From: a virus
Taxonomy: Duplodnaviria > Heunggongvirae > Uroviricota > Caudoviricetes
Strand: one strand, 5' to 3'
DNA length: 31,500 nt
Virus record (IMG/VR): IMGVR_UViG_2671180556_000014
Shown here: piece by piece, positions 1 through 29,543 of the stretch
How the letters are laid out: every line of letters starts with the position of its first letter
Numbering within the stretch: position 1 is the stretch's first letter
Notes under the pieces: model-generated
Database searches by the model: none
What the model saw: the letters and a program-made list of their open reading frames with translations, nothing else
Told to the model about the DNA's origin: nothing
Made by a program: the position numbers and the translations under genes

Positions 1-996
1 TTATGGACGCATTATGGACATTCCTGACACCGGGTTAAGAGTCACAGCATCTTGTAAGAAATCCGGTGCAAAGTGTGCGTAGGTCATAGTTTGCTGAATG
101 TTAGAATGACCCAGGATGCGCTGCAATGTGATTATGTTACCTCCATTCATTATAAAATGTGTGGCAAATGTATGCCTCAAAACATGCACTGCCTGTCCGT
201 CAGGTAAATCGGGTTTTACTTCCCTGAGAGCGTTGCGCACTTTGTAGTAACTGGCATTAAAAAGCCTGCCTGAGTTTTTGGTCTTGATCCGTTTAATCAG
301 GTCCTGCGAAACGGGAATTGTCCTGCGCTTTCCGTTTTTAGTTTTCATAAACGTAACCATCTGGTTAATGATGTGTTCAGCTTTTAAATTAGACACTTCA
401 CTCCAGCGTCCACCAGTAGAAAGGCAGACCAGAGTCGCATTTAATTCATCACCATCGAGCATGGATAACAGCCGTGTAATCTCTTCACTGGACAAAAAAG
501 CCATTTCTGTAACAGCTTCACGTAATCGCTTAACCTCACGGAACGGGTTGTGAGAATGGTATTCACCGGCGTCAATTAACTTGGTGAACATCCCGCTCAT
601 TATTGCCAGATGCCGATTTACGCTGGCTGGTTTTAGACCATCGTTCATCATTACAACGCGATAATCAGTTATCGTTTTCTTTGTTAGCTGGTCAGCTCTG
701 GACACTCCCATTTCTGCAAATTTGGCGATTATTGTCGTCAAACGCCCCCGTTCAATATCTCCACGCTCATGTGATTTTCCGTGATATATCCACCATCTGC
801 CTAACAACTCTGTAAGAGTTCGGCGGTCGGCTGGCTTCTCCAGCCACTCTTTGTTGTGGTAGTTAACCAGTACATGACGTTCGAATGCTTGAGCTTCACC
901 TTTAGTTTTAAATTTCCGCCTGATACGTTTTCCATCTGCACCCTGCGGTCTGACGTCCACTTCATAACGACCATCATCGAGCTTTTTAATAGACAT
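1..996 (-). CDS. int: Phage integrase, tyrosine recombinase (P2 Int-like), 331 aa
   Basis: Full-length minus-strand ORF; C-terminal HVLRHTFATHF...GHSNIQQTMTYAH region typical of the tyrosine recombinase catalytic domain; located at prophage end next to the C repressor as in P2. Window begins exactly at its stop codon. Confidence 0.9.
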   Translation of the reverse strand: MSIKKLDDGRYEVDVRPQGADGKRIRRKFKTKGEAQAFERHVLVNYHNKEWLEKPADRRTLTELLGRWWIYHGKSHERGDIERGRLTTIIAKFAEMGVSRADQLTKKTITDYRVVMMNDGLKPASVNRHLAIMSGMFTKLIDAGEYHSHNPFREVKRLREAVTEMAFLSSEEITRLLSMLDGDELNATLVCLSTGGRWSEVSNLKAEHIINQMVTFMKTKNGKRRTIPVSQDLIKRIKTKNSGRLFNASYYKVRNALREVKPDLPDGQAVHVLRHTFATHFIMNGGNIITLQRILGHSNIQQTMTYAHFAPDFLQDAVTLNPVSGMSIMRP

Positions 997-5895: not shown

Positions 5896-6021
5896 GGATC
5901 TCATCTATACAGTATAAGTAGTTTTGACTGTAATTGATTGTTTTTTATATGGTTGCATGCATTAAATCTACGTCAATATCATTATGTTATAATGCATTAC
6001 TTAAAAATGTTGGAGATAAAA

Positions 6022-6213
6022 ATGTTAAAGCCTGCAGATGTTGTTTGTTTGAAAAGCGGTGGATTTAAAATGACTGTATCTGACTCTACTGAAACTCATG
6101 CTAAATGTATTTGGCATGATAAAGAAGGAGTTTTGCACGAGGAGTCATTCTCCATTGATTTACTGGAAATAGCAGAGAGTAAAAGTGGTATGCTTTGTCG
6201 TCCACGTAAGTGA
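6022..6213 (+). CDS. Small protein with DUF2158/YodC-like motif (63 aa from ATG 6022)
   Basis: Motif VVCLKSGGFKMTV followed by CIWHD resembles the YodC/DUF2158 small-protein family (from memory). GGAG 6 nt upstream of ATG 6022; upstream in-frame starts at 5938 (TTG, 91 aa) or 5992 are possible. AT-rich. Confidence 0.45.
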   Translation: MLKPADVVCLKSGGFKMTVSDSTETHAKCIWHDKEGVLHEESFSIDLLEIAESKSGMLCRPRK

Positions 6214-6240
6214 ATCATAATAAAATTCACGGGGGAAAGT

Positions 6241-6921
6241 ATGAAACAATACAGCGAATTAGAAAACAATGTTAAGAGATTCATTGTTGAGCATGAAAAA
6301 GGGATTTCTATTGATGATATTCATCATAAGTTCCGGATGAAGGATGGTCAGAATCGCAAGATGGCAGATTATCTTATTGATAATAAAAAGATAATTTTGG
6401 AGATGAAAAGTCTTTTTTCTGACAGGGTCAAGAATGTCAATGATAAACTGAATGAGTTGGTTAAAACTGATAGTTGGCTTGCAAAAAACTGGCATGGTGC
6501 TATTCATTTAGAAGAGTTGATAAAAAGACACCCAGACTCAAAGCGATTTAGAAATGATATAATGAACTTTGCTTATGAAAATATTAAAACAAAGATAGTT
6601 AAGGAAGCTAATAAGCAAATAAATGCAACAAAGGATGTTTTGGATTTAAATGACTCGATTGGCGGGTTGATTTTGTTAAATGATAATGTCTTTTCACATG
6701 AGTCTAATTATTTGTCAGATGAAATATTATATTTGCTAGGCACAAAGAGATATTCGAGTGTTGAGTTTGTGGTTTATATTGCAAAATTGATTGATAAACA
6801 GGTTGATGTTTGTGTGCTACTTGACAGTCAATCTAAAAATAAAAATTATATTGAATGGTATATGAATAATGTTTTTTTATTGAACTGGGCGTCTTTTAAT
6901 AAATATGCAATAAAGATGTAG
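6241..6921 (+). CDS. Hypothetical protein, 226 aa, AT-rich accessory cargo (function unknown)
   Basis: Long ORF in strongly AT-rich DNA with lysine/asparagine-rich composition; ATG preceded by GGGGGAAAG; sits in the A-to-cos accessory slot. No catalytic motif recognised. Confidence 0.55.
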   Translation: MKQYSELENNVKRFIVEHEKGISIDDIHHKFRMKDGQNRKMADYLIDNKKIILEMKSLFSDRVKNVNDKLNELVKTDSWLAKNWHGAIHLEELIKRHPDSKRFRNDIMNFAYENIKTKIVKEANKQINATKDVLDLNDSIGGLILLNDNVFSHESNYLSDEILYLLGTKRYSSVEFVVYIAKLIDKQVDVCVLLDSQSKNKNYIEWYMNNVFLLNWASFNKYAIKM

Positions 6922-7240
6922 TGGTGTGGATGGATATGAAATGAGTCAACCAAGATGCACCTTGGTCAGTAATCTCATGTGAGATACCACATATAACACC
7001 AAAAGTGTCAGGTTGATGGCCATTGTTCACCGTTTACAGCAGATTATGGTCAACGAAAATCTGACGCCTGACGAGCTGGTCGGGTGTGCCGAAATAGTCT
7101 GGGATAATTACGGGCGGTTTAACTATATCGGTCAGTCCAGAGTTGCGCCACCACCACGCAGACGATAGAGAACGCCGCCAGTCGTGAAACTTGTTTTCAG
7201 GCTGGCGGGGTTGAACAACGAGCGAAGTGAGGCGTTAGCA

Positions 7241-8182
7241 TTAAGTTAATTTTAATGAATGGTACTCTATCGAGCTGATTGTAGATGCGATATATTTACG
7301 ATCATTTACAGAGAGTATTGCCGCTAGTAGACGACATACCAGAGCCTGCATTTGTAGCAATATATCGCTACCATATTGACAATCATTGATACTAGAGAAA
7401 CCAAGCGGTTGCCCATTAAAAATGGCTTCATGAAAATTATCATTGCGTATAACTGAAACATTACATTCATCTGTTGCCCATGACGGGATTTTTACACCGT
7501 AATTTTCGCACATCCAATACACTCTATTTTGATGAGATGGTTTTTTCTCTTTAATGACTTTATCCCTTTTATCCCATGCTATAGCAAAACAGCAATCAAG
7601 AGCCATATAAAGATACTGGAATTTCTCAAAGGAAAGGTATAGTGGGTTATGTGACAGGAATAGGGAGTGTATCACCGCAGCTATTCTTTTAATGGAGCGA
7701 TCATCTTTTTGTTTGTCTTTTATATAGTTAAGTGCTAGCTCTATTACTTCTTTTTCAGAGCATCCAACGAGAATAAAGTCGGTTAACTTAGTGGGCTTGA
7801 TAGTGGTTGCATCAAGAAAACCAGCGTCAGTGGTTGTCAATCTTATACCCTTGAAAAAAGAGAGGCACCACACAACAAAGTTGAGAGTTTCTAACGAGGA
7901 TGTGTTTTTTAATTTTAGTGTGTGCGTTTTGGGCATGCCGAATACTCGGTAACTATAAGGCATTGTGCATGTGTCACCATTAAGGTTATATACCTTTCGA
8001 TTCCCAGGGTATATCCAACCATTAACAACGTTTTTATCATTGTTAATACGTTCCACGTTCTCAATAAGACCGGGTAAAGTACGCAAAGAAAATTGTTCAG
8101 TCTCAATGTTAACTTCTACTGGATAGTATCCAAACTCCGAAATAATCTCATTTGGTTGCTGTTCGTCAACTTCACCTTGCAT
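7241..8182 (-). CDS. Hypothetical protein, 313 aa, AT-rich accessory cargo (function unknown)
   Basis: Long minus-strand ORF in AT-rich DNA immediately left of cos, convergent with the 226-aa gene. No Walker, HUH or other motif recognised. Confidence 0.55.
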   Translation of the reverse strand: MQGEVDEQQPNEIISEFGYYPVEVNIETEQFSLRTLPGLIENVERINNDKNVVNGWIYPGNRKVYNLNGDTCTMPYSYRVFGMPKTHTLKLKNTSSLETLNFVVWCLSFFKGIRLTTTDAGFLDATTIKPTKLTDFILVGCSEKEVIELALNYIKDKQKDDRSIKRIAAVIHSLFLSHNPLYLSFEKFQYLYMALDCCFAIAWDKRDKVIKEKKPSHQNRVYWMCENYGVKIPSWATDECNVSVIRNDNFHEAIFNGQPLGFSSINDCQYGSDILLQMQALVCRLLAAILSVNDRKYIASTISSIEYHSLKLT

Positions 8183-8420
8183 AACTTTCTCCGTTCAAAA
8201 ACAGGCACGATAATTCTCGTAAGCCTATCATGTTCGCAAAGTATCCATACCTGTGGATTTTGTAAATTTAAGTTGATTTGTCATTAAATAAGCTGTTGCA
8301 TGCAACAAGTGAATGTTTTTGCATGCGTCGGGGATGTCCGTTCAGGCTGCGTGCGGTCAGGACTGGTGCGGATCCATAGTATCTATGCAACTGCATTAAA
8401 ACCGCCCCATGAAGCGGGCG

Positions 8421-8439
8421 GGCGAGGCGGGGAAAGCAC
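8421..8439. other. cos cohesive-end site (P2-type 19-nt sequence GGCGAGGCGGGGAAAGCAC)
   Basis: Exact 19-mer that I recall as the P2 cohesive end, located just beyond Q as in P2; flanked by G-rich repeated motifs. Confidence 0.55.
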
Positions 8440-8580
8440 TGCGCGCTGGCGGTGGTGCTGATTTTATTTTTTCAGCGTCTGAGCGCGTCGTGATGGCGTT
8501 TAGATTGTTAGCCGGGGCGTTGGTGTGTCTGCGGGCTGTTTTGTGCGGTGGTGAGCGTGTGAGGGCGTGATGGCGGGTTG

Positions 8581-8603
8581 TAAAAAAGCCGCCCGCAGGC
8601 GGC
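8581..8603 (-). terminator. Rho-independent terminator downstream of Q (minus strand)
   Basis: Perfect 6-bp GC stem (GCCGCC / GGCGGC) with 4-nt loop; on the minus strand it is followed by a run of six T; lies 5 nt past the Q stop. Confidence 0.55.
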
Positions 8604-16356: not shown

Positions 16357-16769
16357 TGACTGTGCTGGTTGTGTTGTTATCACTGGCGGTGGCGGGGCTG
16401 TTTCTGGTGAAGCATGAAAATGCCAGCCTGCGCGCCTCGCTGGACAGGGCGAACAACGTCGCCAGTGAACAGCAGACGACCATCACCATGCTGAAAAATC
16501 AGCTTCATGTTGCCATCACCAGGGCAGACAAAAACGAGCTGGCGCAGGTGGCACTGCGTCAGGAACTGGAGAACGCCGCGAAGCGTGAAGCACAGCGCGA
16601 GAAAACCATCACGAGGTTACTCAATGAAAACGAAGATTTTCGCCGCTGGTACGGTGCTGACCTGCCTGATGCTGTGCGCCGGTTGCACCAGCGCCCGGCC
16701 TGCGCAGACGCCAGTGATTGTCCACAACGCCTGCCCGAAAGTGAGTCTTTGCCCGATGCCGGGCAGTGA
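16344..16769 (+). CDS. lysB: Inner-membrane spanin LysB (Rz-like), 141 aa
   Basis: N-terminal TM segment then coiled-coil-like periplasmic domain; overlaps lysA end; P2 lysB length. Confidence 0.75.
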   Translation: MSKLMTVLVVLLSLAVAGLFLVKHENASLRASLDRANNVASEQQTTITMLKNQLHVAITRADKNELAQVALRQELENAAKREAQREKTITRLLNENEDFRRWYGADLPDAVRRLHQRPACADASDCPQRLPESESLPDAGQ

Positions 16770-16914
16770 CCCGCAGAAGAACGGCGATTTAAGTGCCGAT
16801 ATCCGGCTGCTTGAGAACGCGCTGGCACGCTGTGCCAGCCAGGTAAAAATGATTAAACACTGTCAGGACGAAAACGATGCTCAAACCCGACAGCCTGCGC
16901 AGGGCGCTGACTGA
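16624..16914 (+). CDS. lysC: Outer-membrane lipoprotein spanin LysC (Rz1-like), 96 aa
   Basis: ATG at 16624 in the +1 frame inside lysB; signal peptide with lipobox-like LCAGC; extends past the lysB stop (overlapped spanin architecture). Confidence 0.65.
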   Translation: MKTKIFAAGTVLTCLMLCAGCTSARPAQTPVIVHNACPKVSLCPMPGSDPQKNGDLSADIRLLENALARCASQVKMIKHCQDENDAQTRQPAQGAD

Positions 16915-17344
16915 TGCCGTCACGGTGCTGAAAACCAGTCCCGAGATGCTGCGGATATTCGTGGATAACGGGAGTATTGCCTCCACGCTGGCGACGTCGC
17001 TGTCATTCGAAAAGCGTTACACGCTCAATGTCATTGTGACCGACTTTACCGGTGATTTTGACCTGCTCATCGTGCCGGTGCTGGCGTGGCTGCGGGAAAA
17101 TCAGCCCGACATCATGACCACCGACGAAGGCCAGAAAAAGGGATTCACGTTTTATGCAGACATCAACAATGACAGCAGCTTTGATATCAGCATCAGCCTG
17201 ATGCTGACCGAGCGCACGCTGGTCAGTGAGGTGGACGGCGCGCTGCATGTGAAGAATATCCCGGAACCCCCGCCGCCGGAGCCGGTCACCCGCCCGATGG
17301 AGCTTTATATCAATGGCGAACTGGTGAGCAAGTGGGATGAATGA
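16877..17344 (+). CDS. R: Tail completion protein R, 155 aa
   Basis: Length identical to P2 R; synteny after the lysis cassette. Confidence 0.8.
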   Translation: MLKPDSLRRALTDAVTVLKTSPEMLRIFVDNGSIASTLATSLSFEKRYTLNVIVTDFTGDFDLLIVPVLAWLRENQPDIMTTDEGQKKGFTFYADINNDSSFDISISLMLTERTLVSEVDGALHVKNIPEPPPPEPVTRPMELYINGELVSKWDE

Positions 17345-17789
17345 GTTTAAGCGTTTTGAAGACCGGCTGACCGGACTGATTGAGTCGCTGTCACCGTCAG
17401 GGCGTCGGCGACTGAGCGCCGAACTGGCAAAACGCCTGCGACAGAGTCAGCAGCGTCGGGTGATGGCTCAGAAAGCCCCGGACGGCACACCCTACGCGCC
17501 ACGCCAGCAGCAGAACGCCAGAAAAAAGACTGGTCGTGTTAAGCGAAAAATGTTTGCGAAACTTATCACCAGTCGTTTTTTGCATATCCGCGCCAGCCCG
17601 GAACAGGCATCAATGGAGTTTTACGGCGGGAAGTCACCGAAAATCGCCAGCGTGCATCAGTTCGGTCTGTCGGAAGAAACCCGGAAAGACGGTAAGAAAA
17701 TTGATTATCCGGCACGTCCTCTGCTCGGCTTTACCGGTGAGGATGTGCAGATGATTGAAGAGATTATTCTGGCTCACCTCGACCGTTAG
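17337..17789 (+). CDS. S: Tail completion protein S, 150 aa
   Basis: Length identical to P2 S; start overlaps R stop. Confidence 0.8.
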   Translation: MNEFKRFEDRLTGLIESLSPSGRRRLSAELAKRLRQSQQRRVMAQKAPDGTPYAPRQQQNARKKTGRVKRKMFAKLITSRFLHIRASPEQASMEFYGGKSPKIASVHQFGLSEETRKDGKKIDYPARPLLGFTGEDVQMIEEIILAHLDR

Positions 17790-17855
17790 TTGTGCCATTC
17801 CTGACACCTCATCGTCACATTGCCGCCGGTATGACCCGGCGGCATCCTTCCCGTT

Positions 17856-18491
17856 ATGAACACTCTCGCAAATATTCAGGAACTCGCGCGCGCACTGCGC
17901 AACATGATACGCCCCGGCATTATCGTCGAAACCGACCTTAATGCTGGTCGCTGCCGTGTGCAGACCGGCGGCATGTGCACCGACTGGCTTCAGTGGCTGA
18001 CCTGTCGTGCCGGGCGTTCGCGCACATGGTGGGCACCTTCCGTGGGGGAGCAGGTGCTGATTCTGGCCGTGGGCGGTGAACTTGACACGGCGTTTGTTCT
18101 GCCGGGGATTTATTCCGGCGATAACCCCGCGCCGTCTGCGTCGGCGGATGCCCTGCATATCCGTTTCCCTGACGGGGCGGTGATTGAGTATGAACCCGAA
18201 ACCAGTGCACTCACGGTAAGCGGAATTAAAACGGCCAGCGTGACGGCTTCTGATTCTGTTACTGCCACGGTGCCGGTGGTCACGGTGAAAGCATCAACCC
18301 GCGTCACCCTGGACACACCGGAGGTGGTCTGCACCAACAGGCTGATTACCGGCACGCTGGAAGTACAGAAGGGCGGGACGATGCGCGGCAACATTGAACA
18401 CACCGGCGGTGAACTCTCATCAAACGGTAAGGTACTGCATACCCATAAACACCCCGGCGACAGTGGCGGCACAACCGGGGGACCTCTATGA
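17856..18491 (+). CDS. V: Baseplate spike protein V, 211 aa
   Basis: Length identical to P2 V; first gene of baseplate operon after an intergenic region. Confidence 0.85.
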   Translation: MNTLANIQELARALRNMIRPGIIVETDLNAGRCRVQTGGMCTDWLQWLTCRAGRSRTWWAPSVGEQVLILAVGGELDTAFVLPGIYSGDNPAPSASADALHIRFPDGAVIEYEPETSALTVSGIKTASVTASDSVTATVPVVTVKASTRVTLDTPEVVCTNRLITGTLEVQKGGTMRGNIEHTGGELSSNGKVLHTHKHPGDSGGTTGGPL

Positions 18492-18835
18492 CTGCGCGTT
18501 ATCTCGGAATGAATCGCAGTGATGGCCTGACGGTCACTGACCTTGAGCATATCAGCCAGAGTATCGGCGATATCCTGCGCACACCGGTCGGCTCACGGGT
18601 GATGCGTCGTGATTACGGCTCGTTGCTGGCATCAATGATTGACCAGCCGCAGACCCCGGCGCTTGAGTTGCAGATTAAGGTCGCCTGTTACATGGCGGTG
18701 CTGAAATGGGAACCCCGCGTCACCCTGTCATCCGTCACCACGGCGCGCAGTTTTGACGGGCGAATGACGGTCACGTTAACCGGTCAGCACAACGACACCG
18801 GCCAGCCACTTTCGTTAACCATCCCTGTGAGTTGA
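18488..18835 (+). CDS. W: Baseplate protein W (gp25-like), 115 aa
   Basis: Length identical to P2 W; start overlaps V stop. Confidence 0.85.
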   Translation: MTARYLGMNRSDGLTVTDLEHISQSIGDILRTPVGSRVMRRDYGSLLASMIDQPQTPALELQIKVACYMAVLKWEPRVTLSSVTTARSFDGRMTVTLTGQHNDTGQPLSLTIPVS

Positions 18836-18839
18836 AACC

Positions 18840-19748
18840 ATGCCGATTATCGACCTGAACCAGCTACCTGCACCGGATGTGGTCGAGGAGCTGGACTTTG
18901 AAACCATTCTCACTGAACGCAAGGCGACACTGATTTCCCTTTACCCGGAAGACCAGCAGGAGGCGGTTGCCCGTACCCTGACGCTGGAATCCGAGCCTCT
19001 CGTCAAACTGCTGGAGGAAAATGCTTATCGTGAGCTTATCTGGCGTCAGCGTGTGAATGAGGCCGCACGGGCGGTGATGCTGGCCTGTGCCGCCGGTAAT
19101 GACCTTGATGTGATTGGTGCCAATTACAACACCACGCGCCTGATTATCACCCCGGCAGATGATTCGACCATTCCGCCGACACCGGCAGTGATGGAGTCTG
19201 ACACCGATTATCGTCTGCGTATTCAGCAGGCGTTTGAGGGCTTAAGCGTCGCCGGGTCGGTGGGAGCCTATCAGTATCATGGTCGCAGTGCTGACGGGCG
19301 TGTCGCGGATATTTCTGTCACCAGTCCGTCTCCGGCCTGCGTCACCATCTCTGTGCTGTCACGTGAAAATAACGGTGTTGCATCCGAAGACCTGCTGGCC
19401 GTGGTGCGTAACGCCCTTAATGGCGAGGACGTCAGGCCGGTGGCCGACCGCGTGACCGTGCAGTCTGCCGCCATCGTTGAATACCAGATAAACGCCACGC
19501 TTTACCTTTACCCTGGTCCCGAAAGCGAACCCATCCGCGCTGCTGCCGTGAAAAAACTGGAAGCGTACATCACGGCACAGCACCGGCTGGGGCGCGACAT
19601 CCGTCTGTCTGCCATTTATGCCGCTTTGCATGTGGAAGGCGTGCAGCGTGTCGAACTGGCTGCACCGCTGGACGATATCGTGCTTAACAGCACGCAGGCG
19701 TCTTTCTGTACCGAATACAGCGTCGTGACCGGAGGCTCGGATGAGTGA
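18840..19748 (+). CDS. J: Baseplate protein J, 302 aa
   Basis: Length identical to P2 J; synteny. Confidence 0.85.
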   Translation: MPIIDLNQLPAPDVVEELDFETILTERKATLISLYPEDQQEAVARTLTLESEPLVKLLEENAYRELIWRQRVNEAARAVMLACAAGNDLDVIGANYNTTRLIITPADDSTIPPTPAVMESDTDYRLRIQQAFEGLSVAGSVGAYQYHGRSADGRVADISVTSPSPACVTISVLSRENNGVASEDLLAVVRNALNGEDVRPVADRVTVQSAAIVEYQINATLYLYPGPESEPIRAAAVKKLEAYITAQHRLGRDIRLSAIYAALHVEGVQRVELAAPLDDIVLNSTQASFCTEYSVVTGGSDE

Positions 19749-20352
19749 TTCGCGCCTGCTGCCGACCGGCTCATCACCACTTGAAGTCGCCGCCGCAAAA
19801 GCCTGTGCGGAAATTGAAAAAACGCCGGTCAGTATTCGTGAGCTGTGGAACCCGGATACCTGTCCGGCAAATCTGCTGCCGTGGCTGGCGTGGTCATTTT
19901 CGGTCGACAGGTGGGATGATAAGTGGCCGGAAGCGACAAAACGCGCTGTTATCCGCGATGCGTATTTCATTCACTGCCATAAGGGCACTATTGGTGCGAT
20001 TCGCCGTGTGGTGGAGCCGCTCGGCTATCTGATTGAGGTGAGGGAGTGGTGGCAGCTCAACGAGGAGCCGGGGACGTTCCGCATCGTTGTTGGCGTGCTT
20101 GAGCAGGGTATTACCGAGGAAATGTATCAGGAGCTGGAGCGCCTCGTTGCTGATGCAAAACCGGCGAGCCGCCATCTGACGGGACTGGCTATCAGTTTAA
20201 GTACAACCGGCAACATTTTTGCCGGTGCGGGATGCTATCACGGTGACGCCCTGACGGTTTATCCCTACACCCCGGAGGCCATTATTGTCGGAGGGGATTA
20301 TTTCCCGGCCTCGGCCATTCATTTAATTGATAACCTGAGAGTAAACGCATGA
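19741..20352 (+). CDS. I: Baseplate/tail-fibre attachment protein I, 203 aa
   Basis: Synteny between J and H; start overlaps J stop and end overlaps H start. Confidence 0.8.
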
Positions 20353-21527
20353 CAGTGAAATACTACGCCATTCTGACTAATCAGGGCGCAGCACGGCTGG
20401 CTAACGCGACGATGCTCGGCAGTAAGCTGAATCTGACGCAAATGGCCGTTGGTGATGCGAATGGTGTCTTGCCGACACCAGACCCGGCACAGACAAAACT
20501 GATTAATCAGAAACGCATCGCGCCGCTGAATCTTCTGAGCGTTGATCCGAACAACCAGAGCCAGATTATTGCGGAGCAAATCATCCCTGAGAACGAGGGT
20601 GGATTCTGGATCCGTGAGATTGGGCTTTATGATGATGAAGGCGTACTCATTGCGGTGGCGAACTGCCCGGAAACGTACAAACCGCAGTTACAGGAAGGCA
20701 GTGGTCGTACCCAGACTATCCGCATGATTCTGGTTGTCACGAATACCGAAGCCATCACGCTGAAAATCGACCCGTCGGTGGTACTGGCGACCCGTAAATA
20801 CGTGGATGATGAAGTCCTGGAATTAAAGCTGTATGTGGATGACAAGATGGCAAAACATATTGCCGCACAGGATCCTCATACCCAGTATGCACAGAAACAT
20901 AATCCGACATTTACCGGAGAACCAAAAGCGCCGACGCCTGCCGCAGGAAATAACACCACGCGGATTGCGACCACTGCGTTTGTTCAGGACGCTATTACCG
21001 CTCTGATTAACGGTGCGCCAGCCACGCTGGACACACTGAAAGAAATTGCCGCAGCCATTAACAATGATCCGAAATTCAGCACCACCATTAACAATGCGCT
21101 GTCAGATAAGCAGCCACTGGATGAGACGCTGACTCATTTGAGTGGAAAGGATGTTGCCGGTCTTCTCGCATACCTTGGTTTGGGAGAAGCGGCTAAAAGG
21201 AATGTAGGGACAGGGGCGAATCAGCTACCTGATATGGGTAGCTTCACGCTTTCTGTTTCAGGTACTGGATATCAAAAATTACCATCAGGTTTTATTCTTC
21301 AGTGGGGCTCAATCGGCGCACCAGGCATTGCACAGGATGTAGTAACCCATTTCCCGATTGCATTTCCAAACAGATGTCTGCGTGTTTTGGTCTCACAAGA
21401 CTACACACCAGATAGCGGGGCTGTTGGTTATATTGCCTGTGCAGGTTTTAGTTCCGACCCGGTTAAATTTATATCCAGAGCCAGTACTCCTGGCCTCGGC
21501 GCTTCATTTTTAGCGTTAGGCTGTTAA
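20349..21527 (+). CDS. H: Tail fibre protein H: constant N-terminal part (aa 1-280) joined to variable C-terminal cassette Hv1 in the current orientation, 392 aa
   Basis: N-terminus and the NDPKF...SDKQP region resemble the P2 H / Mu S constant domain; the constant/variable junction at 21189 coincides with a 26-bp invertase crossover site. Confidence 0.85.
21163..21188. other. Invertase crossover site 1 (gix/hix-like, 26 bp) at H constant/variable junction
   Basis: TTCTCGCATACCTTGGTTTGGGAGAA: 12-bp half sites around a 2-bp core, resembling the Gin/Hin/Cin/Pin site pattern; identical in inverted orientation to 22999..23024. Confidence 0.6.
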
Positions 21528-21548
21528 TTTAGCTATATGGAGTGAAAA

Positions 21549-21989
21549 ATGAATTACATATATTCTGCGACTACAAACTCTTTCTATCCGCTGGAGATGA
21601 AAGAGGATTACACTCAAGCTGACTCATGGCCAGATGATGCTGTTGAAGTTGATGAGCAGGTGTATATTGAGTTTTCCGGATTACCGCCGGAAGGAAAAAT
21701 CCGTATCGCTGGAGAAAATGGTTTTCCTGCATGGTCTGAAATTCCACCACCAACGCATGAGGAACAGATTGCTGCAGCCGAATTGGAAAAGCAGCAATTG
21801 ATTAATCAGGCCAACGATTATATGAACAGTAAACAATGGCCTGGTAAAGCGGCGATTGGTCGTCTGAAAGGTGAGGAACTGGCGCAATATAATTTGTGGC
21901 TGGATTATCTGGACGCACTGGAGCTGGTCGATACGTCCAGTGCGCCAGATATTGAATGGCCTACGCCTCCGGCAGTTCAGGCCAGATGA
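21549..21989 (+). CDS. Tail fibre assembly chaperone (G/Tfa-like) paired with Hv1, 146 aa
   Basis: Immediately downstream of H; C-terminus (LWLDYLDALELVD...APDIEWPTPP) resembles tail fibre assembly proteins; convergent with a second tfa gene. Confidence 0.75.
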   Translation: MNYIYSATTNSFYPLEMKEDYTQADSWPDDAVEVDEQVYIEFSGLPPEGKIRIAGENGFPAWSEIPPPTHEEQIAAAELEKQQLINQANDYMNSKQWPGKAAIGRLKGEELAQYNLWLDYLDALELVDTSSAPDIEWPTPPAVQAR

Positions 21990-22554
21990 CGTCCGGCGCG
22001 GTGCTGGTATCTGTTGCCGTCACCGCGTCAATGTAATCCAGCACGGCGTTAAGTCGGGTTGTTTCTGCCTGAGTCAGTTTCCGTCCGGCCTGTAATTTCA
22101 GCTGAATCAGACTAATGGAAGCCATTGCTGCATCAATCAGTGACTGGCGCTGTGCTTCTGCTGCTTCTACTGCGGCGTTATGCTGTGCCTCAGTATCTGT
22201 CACCCATTTCTCACCATCCCATTTATCATATGGCGTTAACGGTGAAAGCGTGACATAACCGTTTTTGATGGCACCGATATAATCCACTGTAACAGCTGCG
22301 CCATTTTCTGTTGAGTAAACAGTCTCATTGCGATGGTCTTCTTCATGGCTCCATCCCTTACCCGTAAATACTGCCACTTTCCCCGGAATGTTTTCGCCCG
22401 GGTCAATACCAGTGGAACAGGCGGGCATACTTACGCCAGTATTAATATATTCATCAGACCAGCCCGTATACTCAGATGTTTCAGCATCATAATAAAAACA
22501 ACGCATATCGCCCGGCACTGTAGCCAGCCCATTTTCATCAAAAACAGGTTTCAT
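21961..22554 (-). CDS. Alternative tail fibre assembly chaperone (Tfa, paired with Hv2), 197 aa
   Basis: Minus-strand ORF convergent with and overlapping the 3' end of the plus-strand tfa; C-terminal motif (LNAVLDYIDAVT...APDVIWPELP) parallels the other tfa. Confidence 0.7.
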   Translation of the reverse strand: MKPVFDENGLATVPGDMRCFYYDAETSEYTGWSDEYINTGVSMPACSTGIDPGENIPGKVAVFTGKGWSHEEDHRNETVYSTENGAAVTVDYIGAIKNGYVTLSPLTPYDKWDGEKWVTDTEAQHNAAVEAAEAQRQSLIDAAMASISLIQLKLQAGRKLTQAETTRLNAVLDYIDAVTATDTSTAPDVIWPELPEA

Positions 22555-22996
22555 TATTTAGCCCTCACCAGAAAGTTAAATGCAATATTTCGCGGTCTGA
22601 CAGCAACAAAATTCACACCATCACCCACAGAGTTACTGGTGAAATTAAATCGTGAAAATCCTGGCTGATTTCCGGCGATGCCATCATGAAAGTTAATTGC
22701 GTGTCCCGCACCTTCGCCTATATTCCCGGCAAACTGAGAAAAGTTTGTAGCTGCCTGCCAGCTTAATAATTCGCGACCACCGTCTGCACCTCGCCCGTCA
22801 TCCCAGATACGAATGAAATCACCGCGGGCTTCAGGTAATACCAGCGAAGGAAACACTTTCGCCAGCACAGGATAATCAGTGGCAGAGAATTTCGCGCCGT
22901 TGAACTTCAAAAACACCATACTGGACCAGCTGTCGATTACAGTATTTGGCATTGCAGCGGACGGCCAGAAGAACGGAACGCCAATAGCTGGAGCAC
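22554..22996 (-). CDS. Alternative tail-fibre variable C-terminal cassette (Hv2), here fused in frame to an inverted partial copy of the H constant region
   Basis: Minus-strand coding sequence ending VRPRNIAFNFLVRAK, joined at 22997 to a reverse-complement copy of H codons 73-280; the ORF-track reading frame continues to 23531. Confidence 0.65.
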
Positions 22997-23623
22997 CTTC
23001 TCCCAAACCAAGGTATGCGAGAAGACCGGCAACATCCTTTCCACTCAAATGAGTCAGCGTCTCATCCAGTGGCTGCTTATCTGACAGCGCATTGTTAATG
23101 GTGGTGCTGAATTTCGGATCATTGTTAATGGCTGCGGCAATTTCTTTCAGTGTGTCCAGCGTGGCTGGCGCACCGTTAATCAGAGCGGTAATAGCGTCCT
23201 GAACAAACGCAGTGGTCGCAATCCGCGTGGTGTTATTTCCTGCGGCAGGCGTCGGCGCTTTTGGTTCTCCGGTAAATGTCGGATTATGTTTCTGTGCATA
23301 CTGGGTATGAGGATCCTGTGCGGCAATATGTTTTGCCATCTTGTCATCCACATACAGCTTTAATTCCAGGACTTCATCATCCACGTATTTACGGGTCGCC
23401 AGTACCACCGACGGGTCGATTTTCAGCGTGATGGCTTCGGTATTCGTGACAACCAGAATCATGCGGATAGTCTGGGTACGACCACTGCCTTCCTGTAACT
23501 GCGGTTTGTACGTTTCCGGGCAGTTCGCCACCGCAATGAGTACGCCTTCATCATCATAAAGCCCAATCTCACGGATCCAGAATCCACCCTCGTTCTCAGG
23601 GATGATTTGCTCCGCAATAATCT
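22997..23623 (-). repeat. 627-bp inverted duplicate of the H constant region (partner copy 20563..21189 on plus strand)
   Basis: Both ends checked by eye by reverse-complement comparison; translated sequence ANCPETY...LAYLGLGE is identical in both copies. Starts mid-codon with no recombination site at the 20563/23623 end. Confidence 0.8.
22999..23024. other. Invertase crossover site 2 (hybrid site: Hv2-side half plus H-constant-side half)
   Basis: TTCTCCCAAACCAAGGTATGCGAGAA, the reverse complement of site 1. Confidence 0.6.
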
Positions 23624-23624
23624 A

Positions 23625-24176
23625 CAGCCCGTATACTCAGATGTTTCAGCATCATAATAAAAACAACGCATATCGCCCGGCACTGTAGCCAGCCCATTTT
23701 CATCAAAAACAGGTTTCATTATTTAGCCCTCACCAGAAAGTTAAATGCAATATTTCGCGGTCTGACAGCAACAAAATTCACACCATCACCCACAGAGTTA
23801 CTGGTGAAATTAAATCGTGAAAATCCTGGCTGATTTCCGGCGATGCCATCATGAAAGTTAATTGCGTGTCCCGCACCTTCGCCTATATTCCCGGCAAACT
23901 GAGAAAAGTTTGTAGCTGCCTGCCAGCTTAATAATTCGCGACCACCGTCTGCACCTCGCCCGTCATCCCAGATACGAATGAAATCACCGCGGGCTTCAGG
24001 TAATACCAGCGAAGGAAACACTTTCGCCAGCACAGGATAATCAGTGGCAGAGAATTTCGCGCCGTTGAACTTCAAAAACACCATACTGGACCAGCTGTCG
24101 ATTACAGTATTTGGCATTGCAGCGGACGGCCAGAAGAACGGAACGCCAATAGCTGGAGCACCTTCTCCCAAACCAA
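23625..24176 (-). repeat. 552-bp direct duplicate of 22460..23011 (Hv2 cassette plus first 31 codons of the alternative tfa)
   Basis: Ends checked by eye; ORFs 23719..24216 and 23459..23719 encode proteins identical to Hv2 and to the first 31 aa of the 21961..22554 Tfa before diverging. Confidence 0.8.
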
Positions 24177-24188
24177 CGTTTATGAAAA
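24163..24188. other. Invertase crossover site 3 (native right-hand site next to invertase gene)
   Basis: TTCTCCCAAACCAACGTTTATGAAAA: same left half as site 2, right half from unique flank; 50 bp upstream of the invertase start. Confidence 0.6.
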
Positions 24189-24237
24189 TGCAGAGATAAC
24201 GGGCAACTGGCATCATCTCCGGTTTTTATTCAGGGGG

Positions 24238-24837
24238 ATGCTCATGCTTATTGGCTATGTACGCGTGTCAACAAATGACCAGAATACGGAATTGCAGCGT
24301 AACGCGCTGGAGTGCGCAGGATGTGAGCTGATTTTTGAGGACAAAATCAGCGGCACGAAGTCCGACAGGCCGGGACTGAAAAAACTGCTCAGGACATTAT
24401 CGGAGGGGGATACACTGGTAGTCTGGAAGCTGGACCGGCTGGGGCGTAGTATGCGGCATCTGGTCATTCTGGTTGAGGAGCTGCGCGAACGCGGCGTTAA
24501 TTTTCGCAGCCTGACGGATGCTATTGATACCAGCACGCCGATGGGGCGTTTTTTCTTTCATGTGATGGGTGCCCTGGCCGAAATGGAACGAGAACTCATT
24601 GTCGAGCGGACACGCGCCGGACTGGAAGCGGCCAGAGCCAAAGGTCGTATTGGTGGCAGACGTCCGAAACTCACCGCGAGTGAGTGGGAGCAGGCCGGGC
24701 GGTTGTTGGCTGCAGGGGAATCACGTCAACGCGTGGCACTGATTTTTGATATTGGCCTGTCCACGCTCTATAAAAAATTCCCCGCCTCCGTGACAAAAAA
24801 TAAATTGTGTCATCCCTTAGCCAACCGGGACAAATAG
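24238..24837 (+). CDS. Site-specific DNA invertase, serine recombinase (Gin/Hin/Cin/Pin family)
   Basis: N-terminus MLIGYVRVSTNDQ with catalytic serine, resolvase-type core and C-terminal HTH (LSTLYKKF); adjacent to the invertible tail-fibre segment. Start may be ATG 24238 or 24244. Confidence 0.9.
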   Translation: MLMLIGYVRVSTNDQNTELQRNALECAGCELIFEDKISGTKSDRPGLKKLLRTLSEGDTLVVWKLDRLGRSMRHLVILVEELRERGVNFRSLTDAIDTSTPMGRFFFHVMGALAEMERELIVERTRAGLEAARAKGRIGGRRPKLTASEWEQAGRLLAAGESRQRVALIFDIGLSTLYKKFPASVTKNKLCHPLANRDK

Positions 24838-24896
24838 CCTGACATCTCCGGCACAACTGAAAATATCACTCACCCATTAACCACGGAGTTAAACGG

Positions 24897-26087
24897 ATGA
24901 GTGACTATCATCACGGCGTGCAGGTGCTGGAGATTAACGACGGCACCCGCGTCATTTCCACCGTATCCACTGCCATTGTCGGCATGGTCTGCACGGCCAG
25001 CGATGCGGATGTCGAAACCTTCCCCCTCAATAAACCGGTACTGATTACCAATGTGCAGAGCGCAATTGCAAAGGCCGGTAAAAAAGGCACGCTGGCGGCA
25101 TCGTTGCAGGCCATCGCCGACCAGTCAAAACCGGTCACCGTTGTCGTGCGTGTGGAAGACGGCACCGGCGACGACGAGGAAACGAAACTCGCGCAGACCG
25201 TTTCCAATATCATCGGCACCACTGACGAAAACGGTCAGTACACCGGACTGAAAGCCCTGCTGGCGGCGGAGTCGGTAACCGGTGTTAAGCCGCGCATTCT
25301 CGGTGTGCCGGGACTGGACACCAAAGAGGTTGCCGTCGCACTGGCATCAGTCTGTCAGAAGCTGCGCGCTTTCGGGTATATCAGCGCATGGGGCTGTAAA
25401 ACCATTTCCGAGGTGAAAGCCTACCGCCAGAATTTCAGCCAGCGTGAGCTGATGGTCATCTGGCCGGATTTCCTCGCATGGGATACGGTTGCCAGTACCA
25501 CCGCCACCGCGTATGCCACCGCCCGTGCGCTGGGTCTGCGCGCTAAAATCGACCAGGAGCAGGGCTGGCATAAAACGCTGTCCAACGTCGGGGTAAACGG
25601 TGTTACCGGCATCAGCGCGTCCGTATTCTGGGATTTGCAGGAGTCCGGCACCGATGCTGACCTGCTTAACGAGTCTGGCGTCACAACGCTGATTCGCCGC
25701 GACGGTTTCCGCTTCTGGGGTAACCGTACCTGCTCTGATGACCCGCTGTTCCTCTTTGAAAACTACACCCGCACCGCGCAGGTGCTGGCCGACACGATGG
25801 CTGAGGCGCACATGTGGGCGGTGGACAAGCCCATCACTGCAACGCTGATTCGCGACATCGTTGACGGCATCAATGCCAAATTCCGTGAGCTGAAAACAAA
25901 CGGCTATATCGTGGATGCGACCTGCTGGTTCAGCGAAGAATCCAACGATGCGGAAACCCTCAAGGCCGGAAAACTGTATATCGACTACGACTATACACCG
26001 GTGCCTCCTCTTGAAAACCTGACCCTGCGCCAGCGTATTACCGATAAATACCTCGCAAATCTGGTCACCTCGGTTAACAGCAATTAA
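24897..26087 (+). CDS. FI: Tail sheath protein FI, 396 aa
   Basis: Length identical to P2 FI; GGAG upstream; followed by the tube gene. Confidence 0.9.
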   Translation: MSDYHHGVQVLEINDGTRVISTVSTAIVGMVCTASDADVETFPLNKPVLITNVQSAIAKAGKKGTLAASLQAIADQSKPVTVVVRVEDGTGDDEETKLAQTVSNIIGTTDENGQYTGLKALLAAESVTGVKPRILGVPGLDTKEVAVALASVCQKLRAFGYISAWGCKTISEVKAYRQNFSQRELMVIWPDFLAWDTVASTTATAYATARALGLRAKIDQEQGWHKTLSNVGVNGVTGISASVFWDLQESGTDADLLNESGVTTLIRRDGFRFWGNRTCSDDPLFLFENYTRTAQVLADTMAEAHMWAVDKPITATLIRDIVDGINAKFRELKTNGYIVDATCWFSEESNDAETLKAGKLYIDYDYTPVPPLENLTLRQRITDKYLANLVTSVNSN

Positions 26088-26099
26088 GGAGCCTGACCG

Positions 26100-26618
26100 A
26101 TGGCAATGCCGCGCAAACTCAAGTTAATGAACGTCTTTCTGAACGGCTACAGCTATCAGGGCGTTGCAAAGTCCGTCACGCTGCCAAAACTGACCCGTAA
26201 GCTCGAAAACTATCGCGGTGCGGGGATGAACGGCAGCGCACCGGTAGACCTCGGCCTTGATGACGATGCGCTGTCAATGGAGTGGTCGCTCGGGGGCTTC
26301 CCGGATTCGGTTATCTGGGAGCTTTACGCCGCAACCGGCGTGGATGCCGTGCCGATTCGTTTTGCAGGCTCTTACCAGCGCGACGATACCGGCGAAACGG
26401 TGGCCGTCGAAGTGGTCATGCGTGGCCGTCAGAAAGAAATCGACACCGGTGAGGGTAAACAGGGAGAAGACACCGAGTCGAAAATCTCCGTGGTCTGCAC
26501 CTATTTCCGGCTGACGATGGACGGTAAGGAGCTGGTCGAAATTGACACCATCAACATGATTGAGAAGGTGAACGGCGTCGACCGGCTGGAGCAACACCGC
26601 CGCAATATCGGCCTGTGA
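26100..26618 (+). CDS. FII: Tail tube protein FII, 172 aa
   Basis: Length identical to P2 FII; synteny. Confidence 0.9.
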   Translation: MAMPRKLKLMNVFLNGYSYQGVAKSVTLPKLTRKLENYRGAGMNGSAPVDLGLDDDALSMEWSLGGFPDSVIWELYAATGVDAVPIRFAGSYQRDDTGETVAVEVVMRGRQKEIDTGEGKQGEDTESKISVVCTYFRLTMDGKELVEIDTINMIEKVNGVDRLEQHRRNIGL

Positions 26619-26675
26619 TTTTCATCCGGTCAGCCAGGCTGACCGGTTAACCCCCGATTCAGAAGTGAGAAAACC

Positions 26676-26951
26676 ATGAACAAAGAAAATGTCATTACCC
26701 TGGAAAATCCGGTCAAACGTGGTGAGCAGGTTATCGAACAGGTCACGCTGATGAAACCCAATGCCGGGACGCTGCGCGGTGTCAGTCTGGCTGCGGTTGC
26801 AAACTCCGAAGTCGATGCACTGATTAAGGTGCTGCCGCGCATGACGGCACCGATGCTGACCGAGCAGGAGGTCGCCGCGCTGGAACTGCCTGACCTTGTG
26901 GCGCTGGCCGGTAAGGTGGTCGGTTTTTTGTCGCCGAACTCGGTGCAGTGA
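26676..26951 (+). CDS. E: Tail assembly chaperone E, 91 aa
   Basis: Length identical to P2 E; lies directly upstream of tape measure gene; contains a slippery heptamer near its 3' end. Confidence 0.8.
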   Translation: MNKENVITLENPVKRGEQVIEQVTLMKPNAGTLRGVSLAAVANSEVDALIKVLPRMTAPMLTEQEVAALELPDLVALAGKVVGFLSPNSVQ

Positions 26952-27103
26952 CGTTTCCGAAAAATCTCTCGGTCGATGACCTGATGGCGGATGTGGCAGT
27001 GATATTTCACTGGCCGCCATCAGAACTATATCCCATGAGCCTGACCGAACTCATCACATGGCGCGAAAAGGCGCTCCGGCGAAGCGGAAACACGAATGAG
27101 TAA
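26676..27103 (+). CDS. E': E+E' tail assembly chaperone made by programmed -1 frameshift (slip at 26924..26930)
   Basis: Heptamer T TTT TTG in the E zero frame; the -1 frame is open from there to TAA at 27101..27103, overlapping the T start; analogous to lambda G/GT and P2 E/E'. Confidence 0.55.
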
Positions 27104-29543
27104 CAATGTAAAATTACAGGTATTGCTCAGGGCTGTTGACCAGGCATCCCGCCCGTTTAAATCCATCCGCACAGCGAGCAAATCGCTGTCGGGGGATATC
27201 CGGGAAACACAAAAATCACTGCGCGAGCTGAACGGTCAGGCATCCCGTATTGAGGGATTTCGCAAGACCAGTGCACAGCTCGCCGTGACTGGTCAGGAAC
27301 TGAAAAAAGCCAGACAGGAAGCCGCAGCTCTGGCTGTCCAGTTTAAAAATACTGAACGACCGACAAATGCACAGGCAAAGGCAATGGAAGCCGCGCGTAA
27401 AAATGCGTCTGAGTTACAGGCGAAATATAACAGCCTGAGATTGTCGGTACAGCGCCAGCGTCAGGAGTTAAGTCAGGTGGGTATTAATACCCGTAATCTG
27501 GCGCATGATGAACGAGGGCTGAAAAACCGTATCAGTGAAACCACCGCACAGCTTAACCGTCAGCGTGACGCGCTGGCGCGTGTCAGTGCGCAACAGGCAA
27601 AACTTAATGCAGTAAAACAGCGTTATCAGGCCGGAAAGGAACTGGCCGGAAATATGGCCTCAGTGGGCGCTGCCGGTGTGGGGATTGCTGCTGCGGGAAC
27701 GATGGCCGGAGTTAAGTTGCTGATGCCCGGTTATGAGTTTGCGCAGAAAAACTCAGAATTGCAGGCTGTGCTCGGAGTGGCAAAAGACTCCGCCGAAATG
27801 ACCGCACTACGCAAACAGGCGCGCCAGCTCGGCGACAATACCGCCGCCTCGGCGGATGATGCGGCCGGTGCACAGATAATCATCGCGAAAGCGGGTGGGG
27901 ATGTTGATGCCATTCAGGCGGCAACGCCGGTCACGCTGAATATGGCGCTGGCGAACCGCCGCACGATGGAAGAAAACGCCGCCCTGCTGATGGGGATGAA
28001 ATCCGCCTTTCAGCTTTCAAACGATAAGGTCGCTCATATCGGGGATGTTCTCTCCATGACGATGAACAAAACCGCCGCCGATTTTGACGGCATGAGTGAT
28101 GCGCTGACCTATGCCGCACCTGTGGCAAAAAATGCCGGTGTCAGCATTGAAGAAACCGCCGCAATGGTCGGGGCGCTGCATGATGCAAAAATCACAGGCT
28201 CAATGGCGGGGACGGGAAGCCGTGCCGTGTTAAGCCGCCTGCAGGCACCGACGGGAAAAGCATGGGATGCACTCAAAGAGCTTGGAGTGAAAACCTCAGA
28301 CAGCAAAGGAAACACCCGGCCAATATTTACCATTCTGAAAGAAATGCAGGCCAGTTTTGAGAAAAACCGGCTCGGTACTGCCCAGCAGGCTGAATACATG
28401 AAAACCATTTTCGGGGAGGAGGCCAGCTCAGCCGCCGCTGTGCTGATGACTGCCGCCTCAACCGGAAAGCTGGACAAACTGACCGCTGCGTTTAAAGCCT
28501 CAGACGGGAAGACCGCAGAGCTGGTAAATATCATGCAGGACAACCTCGGCGGTGACTTTAAGGAGTTTCAGTCCGCTTATGAGGCGGTGGGGACTGACCT
28601 GTTTGACCAGCAGGAAGGCGCACTGCGTAATCTCACGCAGACGGCCACAAAGTATGTGTTAAAACTCGACGGCTGGATCCAGAAAAACAAATCACTGGCG
28701 TCAACCATCGGCATCATTGTCGGTGGTGCACTGGCACTGATTGGTGTCATCGGTGCCATTGGCCTCGTAGCCTGGCCGGTTATCACCGGCATCAATGCCA
28801 TCATCGCGGCAGCAGGCGCAATGGGGGCAGTCTTCACGACGGTTGGCAGTGCTGTTATGACCGCCATCGGGGCTATTAGCTGGCCGGTTGTGGCCGTGGT
28901 GGCCGCCATTGTCGCCGGGGCGTTGCTTATCCGTAAATACTGGGAGCCTGTCAGCGCATTCTTTGGCGGTGTGGTGGAAGGGCTGAAAGCGGCATTTGCG
29001 CCGGTGGGGGAACTGTTCACGCCACTTAAACCGGTGTTTGACTGGCTGGGTGAAAAGTTACAGGCCGCGTGGCAGTGGTTTAAAAACCTGATTGCCCCGG
29101 TCAAAGCCACCCGGGACACCCTGAACCGTTGCCGTGACACGGGCGTCATGTTCGGGCAGGCACTGGCTGACGCGCTGATGCTGCCGCTTAATGCGTTCAA
29201 CAAACTGCGCAGTGGTATTGACTGGGTACTGGAAAAACTCGGTGTTATCAACAAAGAGTCAGACACACTTGACCAGACCGCCGCCAGAACTCAAGCCGCC
29301 ACGTATGGCAGCGGTGGTTATATTCCGGCGACCAGCTCTTATACAGGCTATCAGGCTTATCAGCCGGTCACGGCACCGGCTGGCCGCTCTTATGTAGACC
29401 AGAGTAAAAACGAATATCACATCAGCCTGACGGGTGGTACTGCGCCGGGGACACAGCTTGACCGCCAGTTACAGGATGCGCTCGAAAAATACGAGCGGGA
29501 TAAACGTGCGCGCGCCCGTGCCAGCATGATGCATGACGGTTAA
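27096..29543 (+). CDS. T: Tail tape measure protein T, 815 aa
   Basis: Length identical to P2 T; long helical N-terminus and glycine/alanine-rich hydrophobic segment typical of tape measure proteins. Confidence 0.9.
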   Translation: MSNNVKLQVLLRAVDQASRPFKSIRTASKSLSGDIRETQKSLRELNGQASRIEGFRKTSAQLAVTGQELKKARQEAAALAVQFKNTERPTNAQAKAMEAARKNASELQAKYNSLRLSVQRQRQELSQVGINTRNLAHDERGLKNRISETTAQLNRQRDALARVSAQQAKLNAVKQRYQAGKELAGNMASVGAAGVGIAAAGTMAGVKLLMPGYEFAQKNSELQAVLGVAKDSAEMTALRKQARQLGDNTAASADDAAGAQIIIAKAGGDVDAIQAATPVTLNMALANRRTMEENAALLMGMKSAFQLSNDKVAHIGDVLSMTMNKTAADFDGMSDALTYAAPVAKNAGVSIEETAAMVGALHDAKITGSMAGTGSRAVLSRLQAPTGKAWDALKELGVKTSDSKGNTRPIFTILKEMQASFEKNRLGTAQQAEYMKTIFGEEASSAAAVLMTAASTGKLDKLTAAFKASDGKTAELVNIMQDNLGGDFKEFQSAYEAVGTDLFDQQEGALRNLTQTATKYVLKLDGWIQKNKSLASTIGIIVGGALALIGVIGAIGLVAWPVITGINAIIAAAGAMGAVFTTVGSAVMTAIGAISWPVVAVVAAIVAGALLIRKYWEPVSAFFGGVVEGLKAAFAPVGELFTPLKPVFDWLGEKLQAAWQWFKNLIAPVKATRDTLNRCRDTGVMFGQALADALMLPLNAFNKLRSGIDWVLEKLGVINKESDTLDQTAARTQAATYGSGGYIPATSSYTGYQAYQPVTAPAGRSYVDQSKNEYHISLTGGTAPGTQLDRQLQDALEKYERDKRARARASMMHDG

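Follow-up and report, generated by a model that had tools for sequence, protein, structure and literature searches.

In the G segment of phage Mu (NC_000929) a constant fibre gene runs into a crossover site, followed by a tip with its chaperone, a second chaperone and tip facing the first pair, a second site and the invertase, and its 26-bp sites consist of 12-bp half-sites around a 2-bp core. Both the gene layout and the build of the sites recur in the tail-fibre locus of a P2-like prophage, which we analysed within a 31,500-nucleotide stretch of viral DNA (the window). An earlier note on this DNA had proposed a Mu G-segment-like switch in a P2-like prophage, and this description holds: alternative tips with chaperones, inverted gix-like sites and an intact Gin-family invertase are all present. 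The left (L) and right (R) sites resemble gixL and gixR in layout and position, R preceding the ATG of the invertase by 55 bp and gixR preceding gin by 54 bp. The two systems differ in the site core (TT/AA in the prophage, TC/GA in Mu), in the length of the invertible segment (~1.8 kb vs. ~3 kb), in the phage that carries them, here a P2-type myovirus whose fibre is P2 gpH-like and not Mu S, and in the tips, which are unrelated to those of Mu, the prophage having one tip with a gp53-like C-terminus and one that is collar-like.

Classical phage P2 has fixed H and G genes and is not known to have an invertase. Classical P2 records matched only 42% of the 8-kb tail-fibre region, with no invertase listed under the match. 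Elsewhere the prophage is P2-like, with integrase, Cox, gpA, portal, terminase, capsid and lysis genes as well as baseplate, sheath, tube, tape measure, D and Ogr. Gin-type invertible tail-fibre switches are common in P2-like prophages of E. coli, their junctions being found in hundreds of complete genomes. P2-like relatives with an annotated invertase include pro483 (NC_028943), "phage P2" of O157:H43 T22 (NC_041848) and the GPEC1031 and ECJXMCRH7 prophages, which share the gene order I, H, chaperone, chaperone', tip', invertase, sheath at 94–97% DNA identity; some carry other cassette alleles, and the 1,165-bp inverted and direct duplication described below is absent from these relatives. 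GPEC1031, for example, agrees with the prophage in its genes, their order and both cassettes and has two sites, and the two-site layout is found in ECJXMCRH7 and phage pro483 too. In the P2-like prophage tail-fibre locus of EPEC E2348/69, whole-genome sequencing of clonal culture found both orientations coexisting (Goldberg et al. 2014, PMC4272514), the situation that a probably chimeric assembly suggests for the prophage studied here. The prophage switch is real but already known, from phage pro483 and EPEC P2-like prophages; flipping in culture has been demonstrated for such E. coli switches, and biologically the locus adds little.

The probable two-site switch

The features of the locus are listed in Table 1. 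The N-terminus of H matches Phage_tail_fib (Pfam, E 2e-62) and its C-terminal tip Gp53-like_C (Pfam, E 1.5e-14). The end of the constant part (...LLAYLGLGE) is encoded by the crossover site itself, and when the segment was inverted in silico the reading frame was kept and only residues past ...GLGE were exchanged. H then continued into the second tip as an in-frame 427-aa protein with U2 directly after it, each state having a complete in-frame fibre with its own chaperone next (392 aa with U1, 427 aa with U2). U1 and U2 lie on opposite strands and are both Caudo_TAP proteins, whilst the Collar-domain match of the second tip was weak and below threshold. The Pfam matches, reading frames and in-frame inversion together bear out the view that the constant region of H ends at a 26-bp site and has two alternative C-terminal tips, one chaperone each.

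Table 1. Features of the tail-fibre locus, in window coordinates
Feature	Position	Strand	Basis
Tail-fibre gene H, Hc + Hv1 state, 392 aa	20349..21527	+	ORF and Pfam
Hc, constant part of H	20349..21188	+	In-silico inversion
Left site L, TTCTCGCATACC-TT-GGTTTGGGAGAA, 26 bp	21163..21188	+	Consensus matches
Hv1, variable tip with gp53-like C-terminal domain, expressed in the state shown	21189..21527	+	PF21882, E 1.1e-15
U1, tail-fibre assembly chaperone of Hv1, 146 aa	21549..21989	+	Pfam Caudo_TAP, E 1.9e-38
U2, tail-fibre assembly chaperone of Hv2, 197 aa, silent in the state shown	21961..22554	-	Caudo_TAP, E 5.9e-28
Hv2, variable tip, 147 aa, silent cassette	22554..22997	-	ORF; in-silico inversion
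Inverted repeat of Hc (3' end, 627 nt), containing site M; probably artefactual	22997..23623	-	100% repeat
Putative scaffold gap	23624..23624	.	"N" in CYCQ01000002.1, "A" in window
Second identical copy of first 95 nt of U2, Hv2 and half-site	23625..24176	-	552-nt repeat
Right site R, TTCTCCCAAACC-AA-CGTTTATGAAAA, 26 bp, inverted relative to L	24163..24188	+	Consensus matches
Gin-family serine DNA invertase, 197 aa	24244..24837	+	Pfam Resolvase and HTH_7

Aligned with known gix sites, as the earlier note had proposed, L is one mismatch from the gix/hix-type consensus TTNTCNNAAACCNNGGTTTNNGANAA, and L and R are each one mismatch from the consensus built from gix. The half-site TTCTCCCAAACC occurs three times in the window against 0.01 expected by chance, and the 26-bp family consensus is matched three times against 0.02 expected. 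On the plus strand the core reads TT in L and AA in R, that is, the same core in sites that are inverted around the segment.

The invertase (Pfam Resolvase, E 2e-52; HTH_7, E 6e-13) shares 81% identity with Mu Gin across 181 aa, with VRVSTNDQ conserved, and matches the Gin structure 3uj3 in the PDB (E 9e-95). The gene had been placed at 24238..24837, of which the Gin/Hin family and the end stand, whilst the start is most likely 24244 (MLIGYVRVS...), as in Gin and the annotated relatives. Inactivation at the catalytic serine, which had been named as an argument against a working switch, was checked for, and Ser9 is present and intact (for its role in the serine invertase, see PMC3575834). The protein also has the features that imply Fis dependence, namely wild-type His106 and Met114 and a conserved Q..RL Fis-contact motif (PMC3798978, PMC3575834). 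We looked for a Fis enhancer by alignment with Mu gin and by a scan for the degenerate Fis consensus GNNYRWWWWWYRNNC: the first 60 nt of the gene are 83% identical to Mu gin and the sequence beyond 57–70%, whilst the scan of the 5' part of the gene gave no convincing conserved pair and was ambiguous in Mu too. A simple sigma-70 scan upstream of the invertase found no promoter.

From these parts a canonical mechanism can be proposed, in which the late operon would transcribe H, the constant part terminating within site L, and the Gin-like invertase, encoded just right of R, would recombine L with R across their shared, inverted TT/AA core. Inversion would flip ~1.8 kb, comprising Hv1 and U1 and, on the other strand, U2 and Hv2. 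State A would produce the 392-aa fibre with the gp53-like tip, served by U1, and state B the 427-aa fibre with the Hv2 tip, served by U2; by analogy with Mu and P1, exchange of the tip may alter the receptor and hence the host range.

A duplicated stretch joined at one N

Between Hv2 and R the window departs from this layout. A 627-nt inverted repeat (20563-21189 vs. 22997-23623) and a 552-nt direct repeat (22460-23011 vs. 23625-24176), both 100% identical, abut exactly at position 23624. Hv2 occurs twice, one copy being fused to an inverted, 5'-truncated Hc, and one of the two copies of Hv2 and the U2 end is redundant. Position 23624 is also the sole difference in 12,978 bases between the window and its source record (GCA_001284525.1, CYCQ01000002.1), and removal of 23012..24176 (1,165 bp) from the window restores a canonical two-site locus collinear with GPEC1031. 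The inverted Hc copy constitutes an Hc::Hv2 junction, i.e. the flipped state of the switch, and is collinear, at 98.2%, with the naturally flipped H gene of E. coli HB-Coli0.

No other sequence that we searched carries the join. A 201-nt query across it was spanned in none of 5,426 complete E. coli genomes, where matches all ended at the junction, the exact 34-mer of the join was absent from genome_contigs and viral_contigs, and the 86-aa fusion reading frame over it appeared in no gene catalogue. Microhomology, a trace that genuine illegitimate recombination or a template switch might leave, was likewise not found at the join beyond 0–1 nt, the "filler" base being the N. Because of this N in the source record and the uniqueness of the join, we consider it probable (roughly 0.85) that the true locus is the canonical two-site switch of a P2-like (Peduovirus) prophage of E. 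coli and that the extra 1,165 bp are an artefact, produced when a draft assembly was scaffolded or gap-filled. At one contig end the sequence would have passed out of Hv2 through the site and into Hc (the state-B junction), and at the other it would have come from the side of the invertase through R and reached Hv2 (the state-A junction); abutted with one N, the two ends would leave exactly the extra inverted Hc, N and second Hv2. The single N points to a scaffolder or gap-filler, though a genuine structure with a very short unresolved stretch could in principle carry such an N too; a literature search by assembly accession for the assembly method found no paper.

The artefact reading also bears on the claim of three 26-bp crossover sites. 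L, R and the threefold half-site stand, but the middle site (M) is the exact reverse complement of L and is probably L itself in the flipped state, joined through the N; a 26-bp site does lie there, though at 22998..23023 and not, as had been claimed, at 22999..23024. A multi-site shufflon, such as the EPEC P2-like locus with three inverted repeats or p15B Min, has at least three independent sites bounding at least three distinct cassettes, and here only two distinct tips are present. The structure could nevertheless be genuine, a switch with one site inside a 627-bp inverted repeat, if a 1,165-bp stretch (3' Hc, site, Hv2 and 5' U2) had been duplicated in tandem in the flipped state and the invertase had then inverted everything between the outermost sites. 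Inverting the window between L and R in silico does give a clean tandem duplication (period 1165, exact run 1164), so that two ordinary steps would suffice, and genuine three-site P2-like switches are known from EPEC, where one locus has three real inverted repeats, four variants and three C-termini (PMC4272514); here, in contrast, the third site copies the first. Were the duplication genuine, the locus would be a recent three-site derivative of the switch, would capture multi-cassette tail-fibre shufflons at their very start and would show directly that the invertase acted after the duplication. Against this, the duplication junction coincides exactly with the N of the source record, which leaves the adjacency without sequence support, the join occurs in no other genome or contig searched, RecA would quickly resolve perfect repeats of 627 and 552 nt, and with two distinct cassettes a third site brings no new tip. 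We regard a genuine duplication as very improbable.

The assembly artefact has a further consequence. The extra 1,165 bp hold the flipped-state junction, Hc::Hv2, so the DNA probably came from a culture with both orientations, in which the switch would have been flipping; the chimeric assembly would still be a footprint of both in the sequenced DNA. Absence of an inversion product had been named as a result that would speak against the switch, and the assembly does contain such a product, the Hc::Hv2 junction. Another P2-like prophage of the same genome, with identical Hc and Hv2 but in the opposite state, might also have supplied this junction, the assembler having cross-joined the two; the region is matched more than once in many E. 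coli genomes (median two places per genome), and in an assembly graph a second prophage is indistinguishable from a mixed-orientation population. It would have to be 100% identical over at least 627 and 552 nt, where relatives typically differ by 2–5%, and we think this origin unlikely; in that case the artefact would say nothing on active switching. In mixed-orientation cultures more generally, invertible segments can be scaffolded into false inverted or direct duplications that mimic extra crossover sites, and when the N is swapped for a real base in the input, as at position 23624, the sole clue to the false duplication is hidden.

Orientations among complete E. coli genomes

Comparison with complete genomes indicates that the segment occurs in both orientations. 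The constant part of H is joined to Hv1 in 64 complete E. coli genomes and to Hv2 in 67, whilst at the other end the invertase adjoins Hv2' in 251 and Hv1' in 203. The Hv1'|invertase junction was predicted by in-silico inversion and is matched there at up to 99.2% identity, and E. coli HB-Coli0 carries the flipped state naturally.

Genes and sites of the tail-fibre switch

The locus is a genuine switch with two sites, of an ordinary and already known kind, and the appearance of three sites is an assembly artefact, concealed by an N rendered as A. In the orientation shown (state A) the tail-fibre gene H takes its 392-aa form, in which the constant part Hc ends in the tip Hv1 and chaperone U1 follows. 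Inversion in silico at the core dinucleotides gives state B, a complete in-frame 427-aa H ending in the alternative tip Hv2 with chaperone U2 directly after, which bears out the earlier proposal of two alternative tips, each with its own chaperone. The left and right crossover sites, L and R, are inverted relative to each other and have a common core, 55 bp lie between the end of R and the invertase ATG (54 bp for the equivalent spacing in Mu), and the sheath gene comes next after the invertase. The Mu counterparts are gixL (TTATCCAAAACC-TC-GGTTTACAGGAA, to be compared with L, core TT) and gixR (TTCCTGTAAACC-GA-GGTTTTGGATAA, to be compared with R, core AA), and the Mu G segment works the same way. 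Both the 12-mer TTCTCCCAAACC and the gix-type 26-bp consensus occur three times in the window, against 0.01 and 0.02 occurrences expected by chance, respectively.

Features of the switch region in window coordinates
Feature	Position	Strand	Sequence or Pfam match
H, 392 aa	20349..21527	+	Phage_tail_fib N-terminal domain, Gp53-like C-terminal tip (ORF, Pfam)
Site L	21163..21188		TTCTCGCATACC-TT-GGTTTGGGAGAA
Chaperone U1	21549..21989	+	Caudo_TAP
Chaperone U2	21961..22554	-	Caudo_TAP
Tip Hv2	22554..22997	-	Collar match only, sub-threshold
Middle site M	22998..23023		exact reverse complement of L
Site R	24163..24188		TTCTCCCAAACC-AA-CGTTTATGAAAA
Invertase	24238/24244..24837	+	Resolvase and HTH_7

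The invertase shares 81% identity with Mu Gin over 181 residues and matches Gin crystal structures at E 1e-94. Its nucleophile Ser9, whose inactivation the earlier note had named as an argument against the switch, is present, and the Mu G-segment-like system which that note proposed stands, with a Gin-family invertase, inverted sites of the same core and an in-frame H in both states. The wild-type residues His106 and Met114 are retained (M114V renders Gin Fis-independent; PMC3575834), and the Q..RL motif of DNA-binding domain helix 1, described as unique to Fis-dependent invertases (PMC3798978), is kept as EQAGRLL. A Fis-enhancer step would be expected from homology only, as the position of the enhancer was not pinned down from sequence. 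By the features tested, enhancer apart, the locus belongs to the Gin/Hin/Cin/Pin systems, not to the multi-site shufflons.

The longest invertase ORF begins two codons earlier (24238..24243, MLMLIGY...); Mu Gin and annotated relatives use the shorter start (MLIGY..., 594 nt), with which the catalytic serine becomes residue 9, its position in Gin. Between R and the invertase start lies a terminator-like hairpin followed by a T-run (24205..24234, AACTGGCATCATCTCCGGTT TTTATTCAGG), and a simple scan of this interval found no sigma-70-like promoter.

The duplicated segment and its join

E. coli GPEC1031 carries the window's genes in the same order with only two sites (H of 1179 nt, chaperones of 441 and 594 nt, a partial tip, a 594-nt recombinase, the sheath gene), a layout also found in ECJXMCRH7 and in phage pro483, where the recombinase is annotated 'DNA invertase'. 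The window aligns to GPEC1031 over 20300-23011 and 23625-24900, and thus has 1,165 bp extra. M, counted by the earlier note as a third crossover site, does exist, one base to the left of where it had been placed, but is no site in its own right: it is enclosed in an inverted repeat of 627 nt with 100% identity (20563-21189 vs 22997-23623), in which the 3' part of Hc is copied in reverse orientation. Directly after follows a direct repeat of 552 nt, also 100% identical (22460-23011 vs 23625-24176), which duplicates the first 95 nt of U2 together with Hv2 and the half-site; the single base 23624 parts the two repeats, with no microhomology at their join. On the minus strand, this arrangement yields a 5'-truncated Hc::Hv2 ORF of 325 aa and an out-of-frame fusion ORF of 86 aa.

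Only one contig on record contains the 325-aa ORF, the 262-kb WGS contig CYCQ01000002.1 (GCA_001284525.1), which over the 12,978 bases fetched (16554..29531) is identical to the window bar one base: 23624 is 'A' in the window and 'N' in the record. Where the inverted Hc copy meets the second Hv2 copy, the window therefore has a scaffold gap of one N instead of sequence that was determined. The ambiguous base was apparently swapped for a real one in the scan input, hiding the gap, and further such swaps could occur elsewhere in the window. In agreement with a gap, all matches in 5,426 complete E. coli genomes end at the join and none crosses it; the GTDB-representative and IMG/VR contig collections lack an exact 34-mer across it, and the 86-aa ORF is in no gene catalogue. 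A real tandem duplication of 1,165 bp, arising in the flipped state and succeeded by L x R inversion, is mechanistically possible, as these steps give in silico the window as written, but its only junction is the N, and we regard such an origin as very improbable.

Both orientations in nature and probably in the sequenced DNA

Read on the minus strand, 22554..23623 has Hc fused via the site to Hv2, exactly the junction expected after inversion, and is collinear with the H-U2 region of E. coli HB-Coli0 (98.2% over 1,676 nt), a natural flipped-state locus with Hc::Hv2, U2, then U1' and a gp53-like tip', then the recombinase. The simplest account of the assembly artefact is that the sequenced DNA contained both orientations: a state B contig end would have run from Hv2 into Hc, a state A contig end from the invertase side into Hv2, and a scaffolder or gap-filler would have abutted the two with a single N, although we infer the role of any particular program. 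Our literature search found no paper describing GCA_001284525.1. A second P2-like prophage in the opposite state, its Hc and Hv2 identical to those here, would produce the same assembly graph, a source that seems improbable, if slightly less so than a real duplication; active switching could then no longer be inferred, yet the join would still be an artefact.

In a census of complete E. coli genomes with 240-nt junction queries (coverage at least 80%), Hc|Hv1 was found in 64 genomes and Hc|Hv2 in 67, Hv2'|invertase in 251 and the purely predicted Hv1'|invertase in 203 (identity up to 99.2%); therefore both orientations of each cassette are common in nature. Such switches have been described in P2-like prophages before: in EPEC, Goldberg et al. 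(2014) showed both orientations side by side in each of two P2-like prophages, and one of the two carries three real inverted repeats (PMC4272514); in a 2023 survey, the annotations enriched at loci of programmed inversion include phage tail fibre, tail protein I and tail-fibre assembly proteins (PMC9881135). In HB-Coli0 itself, H is annotated as two partial pseudogene pieces (locus L006, 3795..5078 in its own coordinates), and either its fibre gene may be broken or its invertible region may carry a sequencing or assembly problem.

Prophage setting and variable cargo

In essence the window is a single E. coli prophage of the P2-like (Peduovirus) type; positions 1-20300, with the P2-type integrase, Cox, gpA, portal, terminase, capsid, lysis, baseplate and tail genes, have full-length matches in complete E. 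coli genomes, with identities reaching 97.9%. In the closest complete relative, strain 2023CK-01509, the prophage lies between pflA and pflB (locus L007, 11172..12996 and 42118..44301 in its own coordinates), where the integrase adjoins pflA and ogrK adjoins pflB; the window begins at the integrase gene (1..996), so its own flanks are outside view. The variable cargo region between gpA and portal (5900..8600) holds two ORFs, 6241..6921 (+, 226 aa) and 7241..8182 (-, 313 aa), neither with a Pfam or PADLOC match. Relatives with an identical portal protein encode GmrSD plus HEPN, a SacI-type restriction enzyme, a reverse transcriptase or a DprA-like protein at the same position, and because their cargo there is quite different, the two ORFs could be undescribed defence cargo.
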